64,000 nucleotides of DNA from an uncultured Pirellulales bacterium (GCA_964439135.1 CAYTNN010000001.1:3252-67251); one strand, 5' to 3'; counted from the first letter of the stretch, positions 1,109 through 40,347 are shown. Program-made: numbers and translations. The notes: generated by a model not told the origin, from the sequence alone.

Positions 1109-1669
1109 TCAGGAAGAACCTTTGGAGACCCCGCCTGAGACGATAAAGGCCATCGCCTGCGAACTTTCGATGCCCAACGGTTTGACCGCCTCTTTTGGAA
1201 AGAGCACAACGTTGCCGGCGAAGTTGTACGATTGTGGCAGATAGACCGCGACATAATCAGAAAGCCCAAAATTCTCAAGACTCTCTTGTGTAACGAAGCC
1301 GACTACCTTTGCGGCTCCTCCAGGCACAAATGTGGCAATGACGGGCTTGTTGAAACTCTTCTTATCGCCCGCAAACGCCTCAATCATATCCTTCACCGCC
1401 GAATAAAGCAGCTTTATTAATGGGAGCCCCGTAAAAACCTTTTCAATCAGGGCGAATAATCTCCTGCCCAGGAAGTTCGATGCGATAAAACCAATCACGA
1501 TGATCGATGCAACTGTCAGCAGTAGCCCCACGCCGGGTATCTCGATTCTAAATATGGCACGAAAGCCAGCATCCAGGCTGCTAAACGCCCAAAACAGCAA
1601 AAAAACGGTCAGTGCCATAGGAACGAAAATCACCATACCTTTGATGAAATATTCTATAAGTTTCTTCAT
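1109..1669 (-). CDS. DUF502-like small membrane protein
   Basis: 186-aa ORF with two N-terminal hydrophobic helices (GMVIFVPMALTVFLLFWAF, GVGLLLTVASIIVIGFIA) followed by a soluble domain. This layout is typical of DUF502. Family call is from memory. Confidence 0.6.
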   Translation of the reverse strand: MKKLIEYFIKGMVIFVPMALTVFLLFWAFSSLDAGFRAIFRIEIPGVGLLLTVASIIVIGFIASNFLGRRLFALIEKVFTGLPLIKLLYSAVKDMIEAFAGDKKSFNKPVIATFVPGGAAKVVGFVTQESLENFGLSDYVAVYLPQSYNFAGNVVLFPKEAVKPLGIESSQAMAFIVSGGVSKGSS

Positions 1670-1910: not shown

Positions 1911-2909
1911 TTAGTATTTGCTTAGATCGGGATTGAGCAAGTCATGGATTTCCGGCTTCTCGATGTTTTCTTTTGTTACCAGTGTGGATCCCGTATCGAT
2001 TCGCCGGGGCGTTTGCTGGCCCCGGATGTGCCCGACCAAAGTTTTCACACCGAGATAGCCGATCCTCATGGGATTCTGCACGACAAAACCGCTCAGCTCG
2101 CCCGCACGCAGGGCGGCAATCATTTTGTGGGAACTGTCAAAGCCGATGAATTTGACCTTGCCGGCAAAGCCCGCATTCTGCAATGCACGCAGAATCCCCA
2201 GGGCGGTCGGCTCGGTTGCGCAAAAGATGCCGTCGATGCGTAAGTTTCCCTCGGTTGCGCCGAATCGAGAGAGCAGATTTTCCGCCGCCTGTAACGCGCT
2301 TTCCGTAGTTACTCCGGCGTACCGGTTGGAAGTGACAATCTCGATACCCGCAAAGGCCTGCATCGCATCGAGAAAACCGTCCTCACGTCTGGTTGTACTG
2401 TCTGAACCTTCCGCGTATCGCAGCACCGCGACGTTGCCTTTGCCTTCGAGCAGTTTTGCCATGTATTGGCCTGCAAGCTGGCCCGCTTTGAAGTTGTCCG
2501 TTGCTACGTAGCTGATGTAATTGTTCCCCTTCATACCCGAATCGAAGATCACTACAGGTATCCCGCTGCTCATCGCCTCATCGACCGGCCGGTGTAATGC
2601 TGCATCATCGAGCGGCGCCAGCACGATTCCATCAACTCGGCGCGTGATGATATTTTCCACCACGGAGATTTGGGCTTCGCGGTCGTCCTCCTTTAGCGAG
2701 CCCTTCCACAGGATATCAACATCCAGTTCCCGACCGGCCATATCGGCTCCGGCGTGAACCGTTTTCCAGAATTCGTGAATGGTGCCTTTCGGAATGACCG
2801 CAATTGTCAAACGCTGGTTTTCGACAGGGGCCTCTTTCCTGCATCCCGTAAGACAGATACCGATTGTGAAAGCCAGCAATAGAATTGCTTTTGCTCGTAT
2901 CATATTCAA
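1911..2909 (-). CDS. periplasmic sugar-binding lipoprotein (type I periplasmic-binding-protein fold, RbsB/LacI-like)
   Basis: 332 aa. Lipobox LTGC after a hydrophobic signal. Alternating beta-alpha pattern (IAVIPKG, VDGIVLAP, IPVVIFDS, YVATDNF, REDGF) is typical of ribose/monosaccharide-binding proteins. Confidence 0.75.
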   Translation of the reverse strand: MNMIRAKAILLLAFTIGICLTGCRKEAPVENQRLTIAVIPKGTIHEFWKTVHAGADMAGRELDVDILWKGSLKEDDREAQISVVENIITRRVDGIVLAPLDDAALHRPVDEAMSSGIPVVIFDSGMKGNNYISYVATDNFKAGQLAGQYMAKLLEGKGNVAVLRYAEGSDSTTRREDGFLDAMQAFAGIEIVTSNRYAGVTTESALQAAENLLSRFGATEGNLRIDGIFCATEPTALGILRALQNAGFAGKVKFIGFDSSHKMIAALRAGELSGFVVQNPMRIGYLGVKTLVGHIRGQQTPRRIDTGSTLVTKENIEKPEIHDLLNPDLSKY

Positions 2910-23139: not shown

Positions 23140-24690
23140 CTATGATTTCTCGTATCCTAATTCTCTGAGCACCTGCTCAGCAGGCACGCCCAGCTCTTTC
23201 TTGACCTGGGCCTCTTTTAATTTTTCCATCGTATTCTCCGGCAGCGGGCTGGGAAAAATGACCTCGACGTCCCGGTCCTTCTGGTCGGTTTTGTAGATGT
23301 TGGCGGTATCGAGTATTCCCAGGACCATCCGGCAGATTTTCCTTAGCCCTTCGCTGTAGGTGAATCGTTTGCGATCGTTCTTCGAGAGCATTCCCATCAG
23401 CGTCAAACGAAGGGCCACTGCGCTTGTCAGGTTGCCGAGTTTGTTCTTCAGCACGCCGGCGACGAGCGGCGTGACGGAACTGACCTTGTCCATCGCTTCG
23501 CGTATCTCAGCGATATGCAGTCCCTCGCTGGGCGTGGCGGTGTCGCCGCCGAACTCCTCGATCGACGCCTCCGGATTATCTGTGTACCACATCCTGCCGG
23601 GCGCCACGGGCTTGTCCTCGAAGCCCTCGATTCCTTTGCCGAGGTACATTTTGAACGACTGAAACGTGATTCTGCTGGCCCGGTCGCTCAGCCGGGTGTT
23701 CAGCTCATCCTGCAGCGGGACAAGCGGCTCGACATCGCTTATACCTTCGTAGTAGTATGGCTGAGCGATGTTCTGGATATGGACGACCGGCAGAAAGCCC
23801 CACGGCATCCGGCCCTCGGCGACGAGTTGCTTGTCCTCGTACCGCTGCCATGCATTGGCCGAGGTGATCTCGGTGATGGGCACCACCCGGCGATTGTCGC
23901 CGGCCTGCGTGCCGCCCGAGAGGAGTCTTGCAAGAAACGAGTTTTTCCTGCTCAGGGCGTTTTTCTTCTGCCCGAAGTGCTGCACGTAATAACGGATCTT
24001 TTTATAATCGTTTTCTTCCAGGACAGGCAGTGCTCTTGGCGCCTCAATCAGTTCAAGATCGATTGTCTGCGCGAACTGCAGCACATCATCGATGGACCCC
24101 GCATAGCGTCGGTCCGCAGAGAGGGTTTGTGAGGAGGAGGAAGTGATGCGTTCGATGATTTTATCGCCAGGCCTGACGAAACAATCGACAAAGCCGTAGA
24201 CACTTCCGAGCACTGCCATATCCTGGAAAAATCCGATCTCGCCGTTGGCCGCGAACAATGCCTTTAAGATGCTTTCGATTTCTGCACTTTTTGGCTCATC
24301 CGGCGATTTGGAAACGAATGTAATGGGCTTGCCGAACAGGAAATCGACCGCCGCGTTGACTCGCCATGCGATGTCGTTCTCGATGACAACTTCTTTTCGC
24401 TGCACCTGGTTGACGGGTCTTGCTCCGAAGATTCCCGCCTGGCCGGTGTGCATAAGTCCGGTGATTCTTGCCGGCAGGCCGTATTCCTGAGCTTGCGTGT
24501 AGCACCGGCCGGATTCGTTTATCTTCCTGTCGGTGGCACCGGAACCAGCCGTCTCGACCTTCGGGTTGGCATAGTAATCCCACAGCCGCCCGAAATGTTT
24601 CTGGATATCGACTGACTGTGTATCGACGAGCCACTCAAGGTAATCGCCTTCGAGTGACTTATCTTCAAATATATCAAGTTCAAATCCCAT
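23140..24690 (-). CDS. phage portal protein
   Basis: 516 aa. First gene of the operon, with RBS GGGAGAG. Size and its position before the scaffold and capsid genes fit a portal. General resemblance to SPP1-type portals. Confidence 0.7.
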   Translation of the reverse strand: MGFELDIFEDKSLEGDYLEWLVDTQSVDIQKHFGRLWDYYANPKVETAGSGATDRKINESGRCYTQAQEYGLPARITGLMHTGQAGIFGARPVNQVQRKEVVIENDIAWRVNAAVDFLFGKPITFVSKSPDEPKSAEIESILKALFAANGEIGFFQDMAVLGSVYGFVDCFVRPGDKIIERITSSSSQTLSADRRYAGSIDDVLQFAQTIDLELIEAPRALPVLEENDYKKIRYYVQHFGQKKNALSRKNSFLARLLSGGTQAGDNRRVVPITEITSANAWQRYEDKQLVAEGRMPWGFLPVVHIQNIAQPYYYEGISDVEPLVPLQDELNTRLSDRASRITFQSFKMYLGKGIEGFEDKPVAPGRMWYTDNPEASIEEFGGDTATPSEGLHIAEIREAMDKVSSVTPLVAGVLKNKLGNLTSAVALRLTLMGMLSKNDRKRFTYSEGLRKICRMVLGILDTANIYKTDQKDRDVEVIFPSPLPENTMEKLKEAQVKKELGVPAEQVLRELGYEKS

Positions 24691-24778
24691 TCTTTACTCT
24701 CCCGTATTCAAATGTCATGCCGATCCGGCCGCGGGGTGCTTCGGCTTGCCGTCGGCTTTGCCAAGGCGAAAACAATCG

Positions 24779-24932
24779 CCCCCCATAATTGGAGCTACCT
24801 GCGCGTTTGATGCGAAAATCTACAAAATTGTAGACAGCCTTTTTGATGTAAGTCATTATTTGGAATGGGATAAAAAAATTTTTCAGATTTCCAATTTTAG
24901 TTTCCAGCTACCATCGCTTTTGGTTGAAAATC
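24779..24932 (-). promoter_or_regulatory. conserved upstream element, copy 1 (upstream of the portal/structural operon)
   Basis: About 154 bp, matching 37197-37352 in inverted orientation. A 42-bp block is identical (24796-24837). It contains the palindrome TCTACAA-AA-TTGTAGA (24819-24834), a second block ctaccatcgcttttggt, and a C6 run at the operon-proximal end. Confidence 0.6.
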
Positions 24933-25028
24933 TTGCCATTTCCGGCATCATTTTACCGCCGCATCGCCGGGCGGATTATCTCCGGACGCTCGAAGCTGCT
25001 TGCCGCTCGTCGGAAGAAAACTTCCTGT

Positions 25029-25057
25029 TTGACAAATGTAACCGACATCCGTATATT
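25029..25057 (+). promoter_or_regulatory. sigma70-like promoter candidate for the glycoside hydrolase gene
   Basis: TTGACA (25029-25034), a 17-nt spacer, then TATATT (25052-25057). Confidence 0.4.
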
Positions 25058-25164
25058 ACTCTTGATTCACTGCTTACGCAGAAAGGGTGGTTCGCAAACC
25101 AGTCCTCCTATATCGCTCGCCTCTGTGGGCATCGGGCGGGCTAATCATAATTGAAAGGTAGAAG

Positions 25165-31607: not shown

Positions 31608-32036
31608 ATGAAACGAATTCATGAAAACATCGCACAGCAGATAAATAACAACAGTCGCGGGCATCGAGGCGGGATAGAGGTGCTCCGCAGCAGGCTGAAT
31701 TTGCTGGCTGGCACGGATAAGCTGCTGATGACCATGTATATCGAGCACGGCAACAGCATCCGGCAGATCGCCCGGATCCGCGGTGTCAGCGAGGCGAGCG
31801 TCGCCCGGAGGATTCGAGCAATTACAAAACGGCTCACGGACGGCCCGTACATCGACTGCCTGAGGAACCGTGACAGACTGACTTGCCGCCAGCTCGCAAT
31901 CGCGAAGGATTACTATCTGATGGGCCTTTCTATGAGACAGATCGCGGCAAAGAGACGCAGGAGCTATTACCATGTTCGCGACATCCTCATCGAAATCCGA
32001 AGCATCGTAACCGCGCCGAAACGCCGGACCGGGTAG
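31608..32036 (+). CDS. phage regulator with two sigma-70 region-4/LuxR-like HTH repeats
   Basis: MTMYIEHGNSIRQIARIRGVSEASVARRIRAITKRL and KDYYLMGLSMRQIAAKRRRSYYHVRDILIEIRSIV are two similar HTH units. ATG at 31608 is preceded by AAGGGGGG. The track start at 31581 is a TTG. Confidence 0.55.
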   Translation: MKRIHENIAQQINNNSRGHRGGIEVLRSRLNLLAGTDKLLMTMYIEHGNSIRQIARIRGVSEASVARRIRAITKRLTDGPYIDCLRNRDRLTCRQLAIAKDYYLMGLSMRQIAAKRRRSYYHVRDILIEIRSIVTAPKRRTG

Positions 32037-36896: not shown

Positions 36897-37196
36897 TTCG
36901 CCTATCTCCTGTATTTTGTATGTTCTGACATTTCCAATTTAGCGATACCTGACTGCATCGTGCATCTTACGCGCACCTTTCGCGGCATATTTTATTTCGA
37001 TCAGATTCCGCTGATTGCAAGTCATAAGCGAGTTTCTCCTCCAAAAAGCCTATTATACGGGTAAAGAACAGCTTTCTTAATTATGCACAAATCAACTCAA
37101 TTTGTCAAGTGTGTTGATGTATTTTTCCGGACTATTGGTTTACATAAGAAGGCTCCGAGAGCATAAAATCGCGTTAAGATAGGTAATAACTCGGCT

Positions 37197-37352
37197 GATT
37201 TTCGACCAAAAGCGATGGTAGTTGGAAGTAAAAATAAAAAAGTTTAGAAAAATTTTTATTCCATATCAAACAAGGACTTACAGAATAAACACTGTCTACA
37301 ATTTTGTAGATTTTCGCATCAAACGCGCAGGTACGTTCAATTATGGGGGGGG
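37197..37352 (+). promoter_or_regulatory. conserved upstream element, copy 2 (upstream of the 109-aa/DnaB operon)
   Basis: Reverse complement of 24779-24932. The identical 42-bp block is at 37292-37333. The palindrome TCTACAA-TT-TTGTAGA is at 37295-37310. A G8 run (37345-37352) lies at the operon-proximal end. Confidence 0.6.
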
Positions 37353-37428
37353 CGGCTTTTTTTCGGCCGGGGCCGAGAGCCGGTCGCCCGAAATGTGAAT
37401 ATAGCAGCCTGGGACCGGGATTGAACGG

Positions 37429-37758
37429 ATGGTTTCGAATAATAGTGACATTATGACCTGTCACGAGCAAGAGCTACAAGAGATGCTTGAGATCGGCCTG
37501 TATCTCGGTTCCGGGCCGCGATACCTGCTCTATTATTACGGGCAGCTTGCGATTACCAATGGCGTTGGGTTGAATCGTTGGCCGGAAGGGCCGAAGGTGG
37601 TCGTCGCCGTTATCAAGGCTCAGGAATGTGCGGGCGGGCTCAGCCCGGCGAGAAAGGCGTATCTGCTGGCGAAGCTGCGTTCGCTGGAAGATGTCAGGAA
37701 AGTACAAAGCCGGCTCGCGAGCGAGGAAAGAGGCCGGCTCAGTTTGCAAAGGAGTTGA
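37429..37758 (+). CDS. phage hypothetical protein
   Basis: 109-aa ORF ending 1 nt before the dnaB ATG. Start is uncertain. Confidence 0.45.
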   Translation: MVSNNSDIMTCHEQELQEMLEIGLYLGSGPRYLLYYYGQLAITNGVGLNRWPEGPKVVVAVIKAQECAGGLSPARKAYLLAKLRSLEDVRKVQSRLASEERGRLSLQRS

Positions 37759-37759
37759 A

Positions 37760-39112
37760 ATGTCAAAGAAGGATGTCACTATGCCGTTACGAGAGCTTCC
37801 GCAGTCGATAGCAGCCGAGGCGGCGGTGTTGGGCTCGATCATACTCGATCCGGCATGCCTTGCCGAGGCGGCCGAGCTTCTCTGCGTCGAGGCGTTTTAT
37901 TATTACGAAAACCGTGCGATATACGAGGCGTTGCTGCGAATCTCCAACTGTGGTGACGGCGGATCCATCGATTGCGTGCTGCTACGGGATGAGCTGGTCA
38001 CGATGGGCAAAATGGAGGAGGTCGGCATAGAACATCTCGTAAAGATAATGGATAGCGTTCCGTCGGCCGCCAACGCGATATATTACGCGAAGATAGTCAG
38101 AGAAAAATACCTGCTTCGCAAGCTGATTGCAGCCAGCAAGGACATCTGCGAGAAGGCGTACGAGCAGGGCGAGACGGTTGATGAGCTTATCGATATGGCC
38201 GAAGCGAGCATCTTCGCAATTGGCCGGCAGACTCAGGTTTCGACTATGCACACGCTGAGCGAGTTGCTGCCTTTGGCATTTGAAGCCATCGAGATGCGTG
38301 ACCCGAACAGCCTGACGGGATTATCGACGGGATTCTATCAGTTGGATGAGATAACATGTGGCCTACAGAAGGGCGATGTGATTGTGATGGCGGCTCGCCC
38401 GAGTATTGGCAAAACGTCGCTGGCACTGAACATTATCGAGAACCTGCTAATCGGCGAAGATGTGCCGGTCGCTTTGTTCAGTCTTGAGATGGGCGGCGTG
38501 CAGTTAGCCGAGCGGATGATGAGTTCCCTTAGCCGATTGGAAAATCAGAAGGTCAGGAAAAATCATCTGAACGACAAAGACTACGCCGAGCTGGCGGACG
38601 GTATGGGACGGCTTGTGGAAAGACGCCTCTGGATCGAAGAGGCCTCCGTGCTGACGCCGCTTAGCATTCGGTCGAGAGCCAGGCGTCTGAAGGCCGCTTA
38701 CGATATACAATGCATCGTCATCGACTATTTGCAGCTTATCAGCACGCACGGCCGGCATGAAAATCGCCAGCAGGAAATCACGAGGATAAGCCGGTCGATC
38801 AAATCGCTTGCGAAGGAGTTGGATGTCCCTGTCATATTGCTCAGCCAGCTCAACCGGGCGCCTGCCGGCCGCAGCAACTTTATGCCGAGGCTGACCGACC
38901 TGCGTGAGAGCGGCAGCATCGAGCAGGACGCCGATGTCGTTTTGCTGCTGCATCGGGAGGATTATTACCATAAGGGACAGGCCGATTACTGTAATACCAA
39001 CGTGGCGGATATTATCATCGCCAAGCAGCGAAACGGCCCAATCGGAGCGATAAAACTGACGTTCCGCCCGGAATTGTCGAGATTCGAGAGCTATGCGCCT
39101 CCGGAGCAATAA
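37760..39112 (+). CDS. dnaB: replicative DNA helicase DnaB
   Basis: LPQSIAAEAAVLGSIILDP (DnaB N-terminal domain), Walker A ARPSIGKTSLALN, LFSLEM, IVIDYLQL, and SQLNR...DLRESGSIEQDADVV. ATG at 37760 follows GGAG. Confidence 0.9.
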   Translation: MSKKDVTMPLRELPQSIAAEAAVLGSIILDPACLAEAAELLCVEAFYYYENRAIYEALLRISNCGDGGSIDCVLLRDELVTMGKMEEVGIEHLVKIMDSVPSAANAIYYAKIVREKYLLRKLIAASKDICEKAYEQGETVDELIDMAEASIFAIGRQTQVSTMHTLSELLPLAFEAIEMRDPNSLTGLSTGFYQLDEITCGLQKGDVIVMAARPSIGKTSLALNIIENLLIGEDVPVALFSLEMGGVQLAERMMSSLSRLENQKVRKNHLNDKDYAELADGMGRLVERRLWIEEASVLTPLSIRSRARRLKAAYDIQCIVIDYLQLISTHGRHENRQQEITRISRSIKSLAKELDVPVILLSQLNRAPAGRSNFMPRLTDLRESGSIEQDADVVLLLHREDYYHKGQADYCNTNVADIIIAKQRNGPIGAIKLTFRPELSRFESYAPPEQ

Positions 39113-39352: not shown

Positions 39353-39733
39353 ATGGCAAACAATGGTGACCAAGATCTTATCAGTGGTCCGTGGTCGTGG
39401 ACAGAGGATGATATAAAGCTGCTAAAAAGGCTTTATCCACGAGGAAATACCAGGATGATAGCCGCGAAGCTTTGCCGGCCCTTGACGGCGGTCAGGCAGA
39501 AGGCTTACGACATGGGTATGAAAACGGACATATACAGCTATTGGACCGAGGATGATTTGAAGCTGCTTGCAAAGCTTTATCCGGAGACAATAACAGACGA
39601 GCTTGCCGAGCGTTTTGGCAGGTCGGCAGGATCGGTAAAGACCAAAGCACGCCAATTGGGGTTAAGAAAAAGCGATAGCTATCTAAAAGCTATTAAATCC
39701 CGCCCTCGAAAACGGCGCAAGAAACAAGCCTGA
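39353..39733 (+). CDS. tandem SANT/Myb-like DNA-binding repeat protein
   Basis: Two repeats: WTEDDIKLLKRLYPRGNTRMIAAKLCRPLTAVRQKAYDMG and WTEDDLKLLAKLYPETITDELAERFGRSAGSVKTKARQLG. Basic tail PRKRRKK. Confidence 0.55.
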   Translation: MANNGDQDLISGPWSWTEDDIKLLKRLYPRGNTRMIAAKLCRPLTAVRQKAYDMGMKTDIYSYWTEDDLKLLAKLYPETITDELAERFGRSAGSVKTKARQLGLRKSDSYLKAIKSRPRKRRKKQA

Positions 39734-39909: not shown

Positions 39910-40347
39910 ATGACCAAAGCAAAAGCATTAAGTGCCAAACAGCTTGCCGTGATTGAGGATTTATTTGAAGGCCGGCTGGAAGAGCAGGCAATTCTGGAAA
40001 AACACAGTCTCAGCAGAAAGCTCTTCGACAAGTGGCTGGCCGATGAGGCCTTCACCAGCCACCTCGATTGGCGCACGGCCTGGGAATACCGCAGGAGCGA
40101 GTTTATGCTGGCCCACTACGCCCGGGTGGCTGTGTCAAATCTCGTGCAGCTCACAGATCCTGATAACAAACAACCGGAAACCGCTCGCAAGGCCTGCCTC
40201 GACATAATCACAATGCGCGCCAACCGTTCAGCCGGCACCAACGTGACGCCGGGCGAAAATCCCGCATCGCCCCCCGAATCCCCGCCATTCTCACCCGAAA
40301 CCGCCGGAAAAATCTTAGCCGTCTTAGCAGAAGAAAAAAGCGATTAG
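39910..40347 (+). CDS. HTH protein, terminase-small-subunit-like (uncertain)
   Basis: The N-terminal LSAKQLAVIEDLFEGRLEEQAILEKHSLSRKLFDKWL resembles the helix-turn-helix start of Terminase_2-type small subunits. Assignment is weak. Confidence 0.35.
   Translation: MTKAKALSAKQLAVIEDLFEGRLEEQAILEKHSLSRKLFDKWLADEAFTSHLDWRTAWEYRRSEFMLAHYARVAVSNLVQLTDPDNKQPETARKACLDIITMRANRSAGTNVTPGENPASPPESPPFSPETAGKILAVLAEEKSD

Follow-up and report, generated by a model that had tools for sequence, protein, structure and literature searches.

The window analysed here is a stretch of 64,000 nt that carries two phage-derived operons: a virion operon that begins with a portal gene, and a second operon that begins with a 109-aa ORF and includes DnaB, a TerS-like gene and TerL (Table 1). 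Each is preceded by one copy of an element of about 155 bp. The two copies form an inverted pair, as the first-pass annotation of this DNA had stated, and a repeat search places the arms at 24779-24932 and 37197-37350 (154 nt, 82% complementary, 12,264 nt apart). The finer observations of that annotation were reproduced as well. The window holds exactly two matches to the 42-mer shared by the copies, one on each strand (24796-24837, plus strand; 37292-37333, minus strand), with 0 matches in 100 shuffles, and direct reading of the 31-nt block in both copies gives 2 mismatches. A homopolymer of 6 C (24779-24784) or of 8 nt (37345-37352) closes the operon-side end of each copy. Both copies have the same orientation relative to their own operons, which run outward, and the gaps measure 89 nt to the portal ORF start at 24690 and 77 nt to the start of the 109-aa ORF at 37429. 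The palindrome TCTACAA-AA-TTGTAGA is present in both. A strong sigma-70 consensus, reported absent, was found inside neither copy, the best internal matches being 9/12.

Table 1. Features of the two element copies and of the associated genes; positions are counted from the first nucleotide of the window.
Feature	Position	Strand	Remarks
Element copy 1	24779..24932	-	Points to the portal operon; orthologue upstream of portal in ~70/80 species
Element copy 2	37197..37352	+	Points to the 109-aa/DnaB/TerS...TerL operon; orthologues before the 109-aa gene in congeners
Box 1, copy 1, TTTTCAACCAAAAGCGATGGTAG	24908..24930	-	Distal direct repeat; order-wide conserved island, co-varies with box 2, genome-specific variant
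Box 2, copy 1, TTTTCGCATCAAACGCGCAGGTA	24796..24818	-	Proximal direct repeat; ends 4-5 nt before AATTAT
-10-like AATTAT, copy 1	24785..24790	-	Followed by G-run 24779-24784 (discriminator-like)
A/T tract, copy 1, GAAAAATTTTTTTATCCC	24867..24884	-	Between the boxes; possible bend or IHF/HU site
Palindrome, copy 1, TCTACAAAATTGTAGA	24819..24834	.	Lineage-specific; includes the -10-like hexamer TACAAT
Box 1, copy 2, TTTTCGACCAAAAGCGATGGTAG	37199..37221	+	From alignment
Box 2, copy 2, TTTTCGCATCAAACGCGCAGGTA	37311..37333	+	From alignment
-10-like AATTAT, copy 2	37339..37344	+	Followed by G-run 37345-37352
Palindrome, copy 2	37295..37310	.	By direct reading
Variable leader, copy 1 to portal start	24691..24778	-	GC hairpins, GGGAG ribosome-binding site
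Variable leader, copy 2 to 109-aa ORF	37353..37428	+	Hairpin GGCGGC...GCCGG
Portal gene (SPP1 Gp6-like)	23140..24690	-	Pfam PF05133, E 6.7e-15; first gene of the virion operon behind copy 1
109-aa ORF, function unassigned	37429..37758	+	First gene behind copy 2; no family matched
DnaB	37628-39112	+	After the 109-aa ORF; DnaB_C E 8e-95
TerS-like gene	39910-40347		No element copy located there
Candidate reader, 142-aa, two sigma-region-4-like HTH domains	31608..32036	+	Pfam, PHROG, model, synteny

Outside the element, near-consensus sigma-70 promoters with 11/12 matches lie at 25029-25057 (plus strand, TTGACA-17-TATATT) and at 37108-37080 (minus strand, TTGACA-17-CATAAT). These two serve the inward-facing cargo, namely a GH5 gene and the gene of a chagasin-dockerin protein, so that each intergenic region consists of a housekeeping promoter placed back to back with a special module.

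A search of the window's own assembly (4.5 Mb, 339 contigs) identified eight copies of the element in this genome, two in the window and six elsewhere. Between 4 and 25 copies are present in all eight congeneric genomes and between 2 and 16 in eight distant relatives, and diverged copies are found in other genera of the same family. With 2-25 copies per genome, the element is not confined to the two operons of one phage. Similarity between copies is bounded at about -25 to +170, where ~70 of 83 partners could be matched; over the downstream ORF this number falls to 8-15 of 83, and in the flanks to ~1.5. The element is thus a discrete, sharply bounded module.

Its neighbours were compared for 84 oriented copies from nine congeneric and five other genomes. 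The commonest gene behind the element encodes an HNH_3+AP2 nuclease of 160-220 aa (domains by Pfam; HNH endonuclease by PHROG), which follows ~43 of the copies, while eight copies precede a portal gene and another eight the 109-aa/DnaB operon. All of these neighbours are co-oriented with the element and start 16-500 nt downstream of it, an upstream and co-oriented placement that is repeated in the eight distant genomes; a few copies precede other genes or no co-oriented gene. In this genome, four copies are paired with HNH-AP2 genes, one of which is a fragment and another is cut off by a contig break. The copies thus head the virion operon, the replication/terminase operon and dispersed HNH_3+AP2 genes, which suggests one regulon.

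Several individual loci deserve mention. A decayed element/HNH-AP2 unit is seen at G000:C102:13515-13785, where a copy breaks off after ~95 nt and is joined to a 46-aa AP2-domain fragment. The copy at G000:C244:3081-3241 (plus strand) is an orphan, past which a convergent 248-aa gene ends after 48 nt, and its orthologue L036 is arranged alike; the orphan may be either a remnant or a driver of antisense transcription. One HNH-AP2-like paralogue, extended at its N terminus by a Cys-rich segment (G000:C46:14036-14494, minus strand), has a canonical TTGAAA-17-TACAAT promoter in place of the element, and therefore some members of the HNH-AP2 family lie outside the regulon. A-rich tandem repeats of ~8 nt form the leader between element and HNH-AP2 gene at G000:C256 (~1240-1470, minus strand) and G000:C222 (~2490-2640, plus strand), and also at L002, L005, L011, L013 and others. 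The repeat unit varies by locus (AAGGTAAA, CTAAATAC, CGAAATAT, TTGAGAAT), and these leaders look like unstructured 5' UTRs.

The distribution of the portal gene speaks to the age of the system. Relatives of the portal protein with 59-98% identity were found in 80 species named Sedimentisphaerales, Phycisphaerae or Planctomycetota. The two operons had previously been called those of a phage; they belong instead to an ancient phage-derived cluster fixed in the chromosome: among 121 genomes sampled from the class Phycisphaerae, 71 have the portal gene in single copy, including 18 of 18 from the same order. By profile search, the element lies directly upstream of the portal gene, and co-oriented with it, in ~70 of 80 portal loci, and outside that order it precedes the portal gene in one genome at least (G114). 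A distant blastn search of a phage genome collection gave no match to the element, and an exact scan of IMG/VR gave none to box 2. Judged from this distribution, the element is a very old putative control module of a chromosome-fixed, phage-derived cluster in Sedimentisphaerales planctomycetes. In many Phycisphaerae genomes (families f9, f10 and f14 of the class) the portal match is split, with one part covering residues ~1-175 and the other ~200-514 of a single open frame, which points to an inserted segment in the portal protein of those lineages.

Footprinting on alignments of orthologous portal copies and of paralogues resolved six conserved islands, in the order box 1, CAAAAAT, an A/T tract, ACTTA, box 2, and AATTAT followed by RGRGG. 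Boxes 1 (consensus TTTCAAyCAAAnnGCnnnnTAG) and 2 (consensus TTTTCGnATCAAAnGnGCAGGTAG) are 22-nt direct repeats of one motif, separated by 113 nt in 68 of 85 copies. The gap from box 2 to AATTAT is still more regular (4 nt in 83/85). The AATTAT hexamer is exact in 56 of the 85 aligned copies, its A, A, T and T positions being near-invariant; it matches TATAAT at 4/6 positions and is accompanied by no good -35 hexamer. Inspection of the promoter motifs by eye gave no sigma-54, sigma-32, ECF or Bacteroidetes-type match. The A/T tract has the consensus AAAATTTTTTTAyTC, in which T59-T63 and A64 are invariant or near-invariant across the order. An IHF-like AATCAA-N4-TT often precedes the tract in orthologues; the window copies have no strict match to WATCAANNNNTTR. 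The palindrome, to which the first-pass annotation had given prominence, is confined to the genus and a few others and is replaced elsewhere by non-palindromic, A-rich sequence. As read from these alignments, the conserved determinants are the two co-varying direct repeats, the A/T tract and AATTAT.

Some copies carry additional boxes. A third complete box lies ~67 nt upstream of box 1 at G000:C324:2762-2783, in G008 (C120, C796 and C438) and in G007 (C18). At L057, L078, L079 and L085, a GC-rich insert of ~55 nt follows the G-run and is itself followed by a second box 2 (TTTTCGCATCAAACGCGCAGGT), which indicates that part of the module was duplicated around an insertion.

The two boxes change together. 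In-register identity between box 1 and box 2 of the same element is 0.645, and shuffling the partners among species lowers it to 0.556 +/- 0.008 (z = 11; the observed identity was reached in 0 of 2000 shuffles). In the eight distant genomes, with 2-16 copies each, every copy has the genome's own variant in both boxes, independently of which gene comes next; examples are GTTTGCGCAAGTA, AACGAATCGTGCAGG, AAAGCGCACAT and AAAGTGAACAT, and the variant of the genome studied here, GCGCAGGTAG, differs from AAAGTGAACAT. Since direct repeats cannot pair as RNA, the co-varying signal does not reflect RNA pairing. It is the pattern expected if both boxes are sites for one sequence-specific protein whose specificity drifts between lineages, and the extra boxes found in some copies would also fit binding sites. 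Identity within genomes exceeds that between genomes for box 1 (.80 vs.56), box 2 (.85 vs.61) and the -10 region (.87 vs.70). For the middle of the element, too, identity is somewhat higher within genomes (.65 vs.51), and some concerted evolution by gene conversion therefore probably contributes. Gene conversion may produce a share of the variant signal, yet it offers no reason for the stronger homogenisation of the boxes relative to the stretch that separates them.

Taken together, these observations make it probable, in our judgement, that the element is a factor-dependent composite promoter module for the regulon of an ancient, domesticated phage cluster of Phycisphaerae that resembles a gene transfer agent (GTA). 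Promoter activity, the transcription start, the identity of the factor and the sign of regulation are inferred from sequence. In the proposed mechanism, a sequence-specific protein would bind the two 22-nt boxes, which are 113 bp or ~11 helical turns apart, and the A/T tract would bend the DNA, perhaps with IHF or HU, bringing the distal box to the proximal one. The proximal box would take the position of the -35 region and spacer, 4 nt upstream of the -10-like AATTAT, and RNA polymerase would start in or just after the G-run, into the variable, hairpin-containing leader. A second -10-like hexamer, TACAAT, lies within the palindrome, and the start site could therefore be upstream of box 2. The idea of a common control region, advanced from the two window copies, holds as far as the same placement before both operons is concerned; the module extends far beyond two operons, and the palindrome is not its core.

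The double-HTH protein encoded at 31608-32036, already named as a possible reader, is the best candidate by single copy, synteny and fold. It gives weak Pfam matches to Sigma70_r4_2, HTH_58 and Phage_antitermQ; against the Q family it scores 24.9 bits with PF06530, under the cut-off of 26, and E 1e-5 with phrog_79. A confident structural model (pLDDT 84) matches only sigma region 4 or -35-recognition domains and their relatives, with weak E-values and domain rmsd of 1-3 Å. The Pfam scan gave no match to the GafA-type DUF6456, and hits were to sigma region 4 and HTH families only. The gene is single-copy in 11 of 11 genomes tested, lies 1.4-12 kb from the portal copy of the element in the seven genomes with both on one contig, and is transcribed divergently from the portal operon at the 10 portal loci with a flank long enough to include it. 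Only 10 of 80 loci have it within 3 kb of the portal gene; at the others, inserted cargo separates the two. The recognition helices and the box variants were compared by eye in 11-16 sequences, a comparison that is confounded by phylogeny and does not count as evidence. By synteny and fold only, the double-HTH protein is the most likely reader; in the proposed mechanism it could act as an activator and perhaps also as an antiterminator of the Q/GafZ kind on the long operons that cargo interrupts. Other readers could be the Myb-like protein, the 109-aa protein or an HNH-AP2 protein. The Myb-like protein (39353-39733, plus strand), a second possible reader of the boxes, has 126 aa and two internal repeats; it matches PHROG 323 (transcriptional regulator, D5-like) with E 6e-18 and also the N-terminal parts of phage HNH endonucleases.

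The main rival to the composite promoter, which we nevertheless consider quite unlikely, treats the boxes as operators of a looping repressor, in the style of gal OE/OI with HU, around an internal promoter; box 2 would then be transcribed. Such a promoter would use TACAAT or TAAAAAT, both within the variable region, as its -10, with the conserved ACTTA island near its -35. The 113-bp spacing of the boxes and the A/T-rich centre agree with such an arrangement, as does a sigma-70-like ATGACT-18-TACAAT inside copy 1 (9/12 matches). An A-rich hexamer ending in T recurs at the place of TACAAT in orthologues, and the palindrome overlaps TACAAT in this genus. However, the region in which this promoter would lie is the least conserved part of the element, its putative -35 matches TTGACA at only 0-4 of 6 positions, and AATTAT with its fixed 4-nt gap to box 2 is far better conserved.

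Alternatively, the element might be a DNA-processing site, either pac/cos-like, or a nuclease entry site whose boxes are bound by TerS or HNH-AP2 proteins, or an iteron-type origin, and sites dispersed in this way would let GTA-like machinery begin packaging or replication at many chromosomal places. In the pac site of SPP1, repeated boxes bound by TerS flank bent DNA, in or next to terS. The repeated boxes around an intrinsically A/T-rich centre, the additional boxes in some copies, the genome-specific box variant, and the vicinity of HNH nuclease genes and of the DnaB/TerS operon would all suit such a site. The strict upstream and co-oriented placement at distances like those of 5' UTRs is needed by a promoter and not by a pac site or origin, the conserved -10-like motif, with its constant spacing from box 2, likewise suits a promoter, and no copy lies within or beside the TerS gene; we therefore regard this explanation as improbable. 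A pac site of the SPP1 type in particular was rejected: the boxes and the A/T centre are present, but no copy is found at the TerS-like gene, and placement tracks gene starts.

It is very improbable that the element acts as RNA, that is, as a cis-acting leader or a small RNA gene such as a put/nut-like antitermination RNA or an attenuator. Copies do head two long operons, like putL/putR, and they contain a terminator-like hairpin, GCTCC-N8-GGGGC, with a T-rich tail; stable hairpins also occur just downstream, usually at the start of the variable leader, and are somewhat more stable on the forward strand (50:28, p = 0.004). However, Rfam gave no match at the gathering threshold for the window or at E <= 1 for six loci, and RNAalifold found no consensus pair in 81 copies. 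Single-sequence folding gave z-scores of -0.4 and -1.3, with neither strand beating shuffles; the GCTCC/GGGGC hairpin, which surrounds AATTAT, shows no covariation (z = 0.6); and the signal that does co-vary joins direct and not inverted repeats. The leader RNA that had been offered as an alternative is thus largely refuted for the core, with no Rfam match, consensus structure or core covariation. Three individual pairings were also examined and rejected: an ACGGC..GCCGT stem has many A-C mismatches, pairing of the G-run with a downstream CTCTA involves uncorrelated positions, and a helix closing box 1 with the upstream flanks is inconsistent from copy to copy.

Least probable of the explanations considered is a selfish or structural repeat, either MITE-like or a pair of recombination sites by which the intervening 12.3-kb segment would be inverted; the multiple copies with sharp bounds, often at contig ends, and the inverted arrangement in the window recall such elements, but the alignments of copies show no terminal inverted repeats or target-site duplications at the sharp boundaries, orientation follows the downstream gene, and orthologous copies are kept at the same loci across the order. 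The GH5 gene lies beside the portal copy in 4 of 4 congeners checked, with the orientation of the interior unchanged, so that no inversion isomer is seen, and no recombinase was found among the interior ORFs scanned, which are a minority of the interior ORFs. Coding on the reverse strand was rejected: 50 of 81 copies keep an open frame, but the three codon positions vary to much the same degree (0.18/0.17/0.17) and indels shift the frame. Two ORFs run through the element opposite its operon, at 24746-25144 (plus strand, 132 aa) and 37174-37470 (minus strand, 98 aa); they lack codon periodicity and are probably spurious gene calls.

If the composite promoter is the right reading, the element would be the cis-regulatory handle of a GTA-like domesticated phage system in Planctomycetota. 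A literature search on gene transfer agents in Planctomycetes or Phycisphaerae returned none described among the matches listed, and no paper was found on the combination of HNH and AP2 domains in Planctomycetes. The regulon could then be read from the sequence as the virion operon, the replication/terminase operon and 2-20 HNH-AP2 nuclease genes, and the element would mark genes that probably stay silent before induction of the cluster. The natural set of species-specific regulator/site variants would make a specificity-swap experiment straightforward. At a practical level, the element accounts for assembly breaks in these MAGs and for the probably spurious ORFs at 24746-25144 and 37174-37470. 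In a bolder version, which we hold to be unlikely, the module would be the induction regulon of an undescribed GTA-like system, ancient in Phycisphaerae, in which an expanded, co-induced set of sequence-specific HNH-AP2 nucleases cuts the host chromosome and the ends feed terminase packaging, while regulator and boxes co-evolve and species-specific variants insulate the lineages. The element might also double as the entry site of the nucleases or of TerS, which would make each copy both a switch and a packaging station.

Four known systems were compared with the element. The gal operators OE and OI are 113 bp apart, are looped by GalR with HU, and are inverted repeats that bracket known promoters. 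The gal repressosome resembles the element in having two sites of one protein at about this distance around an A/T-rich centre, whereas the sites of the element are direct repeats, with the second box upstream of the best-conserved -10-like motif. The late promoters PR' of lambda and 82 control long late operons, as the candidate factor would here, and their Q site abuts the -10 within the promoter, a position that box 2 would fit; the candidate factor has weak, below-threshold Q-like matches. Unlike PR', the element has a second, distal box and no known pause-inducing -10-like repeat or nearby terminator.

Among gene transfer agents, that of Rhodobacter capsulatus (RcGTA) is controlled by GafA, a protein with two HTH regions, one of them sigma-like, that binds near the -10/-35 region (PMC9638019; also Fogg 2019). 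GafA binds the promoters of the GTA cluster and of its own gene (Sherlock & Fogg 2022, PMC9638019); it is a 42-kDa protein with a DnaA-like N-terminal HTH and an omega-binding centre (PMC9638019). One dedicated regulator with two HTH regions is common to that system and, as a candidate, to the one described here, whereas no dual-box 155-bp module has been described for GafA.

By analogy, the closest known architecture would be that of PgtaT, the GTA promoter of Caulobacter crescentus, which requires the region -153 to +1 (Tran & Le 2024, PMC11150451). In PgtaT, a distal GafY site at -123 to -113 and an IHF site are combined with a sigma-like GafZ site between -35 and -10 (PMC11150451). The two differ in that the distal and proximal sites of the element are co-varying direct repeats of one motif, and in that the element is present in 2-25 copies which mostly stand before genes of HNH-AP2 nucleases. 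With its 142 aa and tandem sigma-4-like domains, the candidate reader resembles GafA, GafY and GafZ in fold class only, and PgtaT has been dissected experimentally in Alphaproteobacteria, whereas the element is known from the sequence of Planctomycetota. Both are regions of ~150 bp ahead of a domesticated phage cluster's first head/packaging gene. In PgtaT, and by prediction in the element, the factor binds at a distal site, the DNA bends in the centre, and a sigma-like HTH protein has its own site proximally, in the -35/-10 region. Likewise, accessory loci elsewhere in the genome share the regulator of PgtaT and would share that of the element, and the long operons of both need read-through. 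By this analogy, the element belongs with the known factor-dependent promoters of phage-derived or GTA clusters, in what would be a new form, whose unusual features are the co-evolution of its two boxes and the unexpected regulon of HNH-AP2 nucleases.
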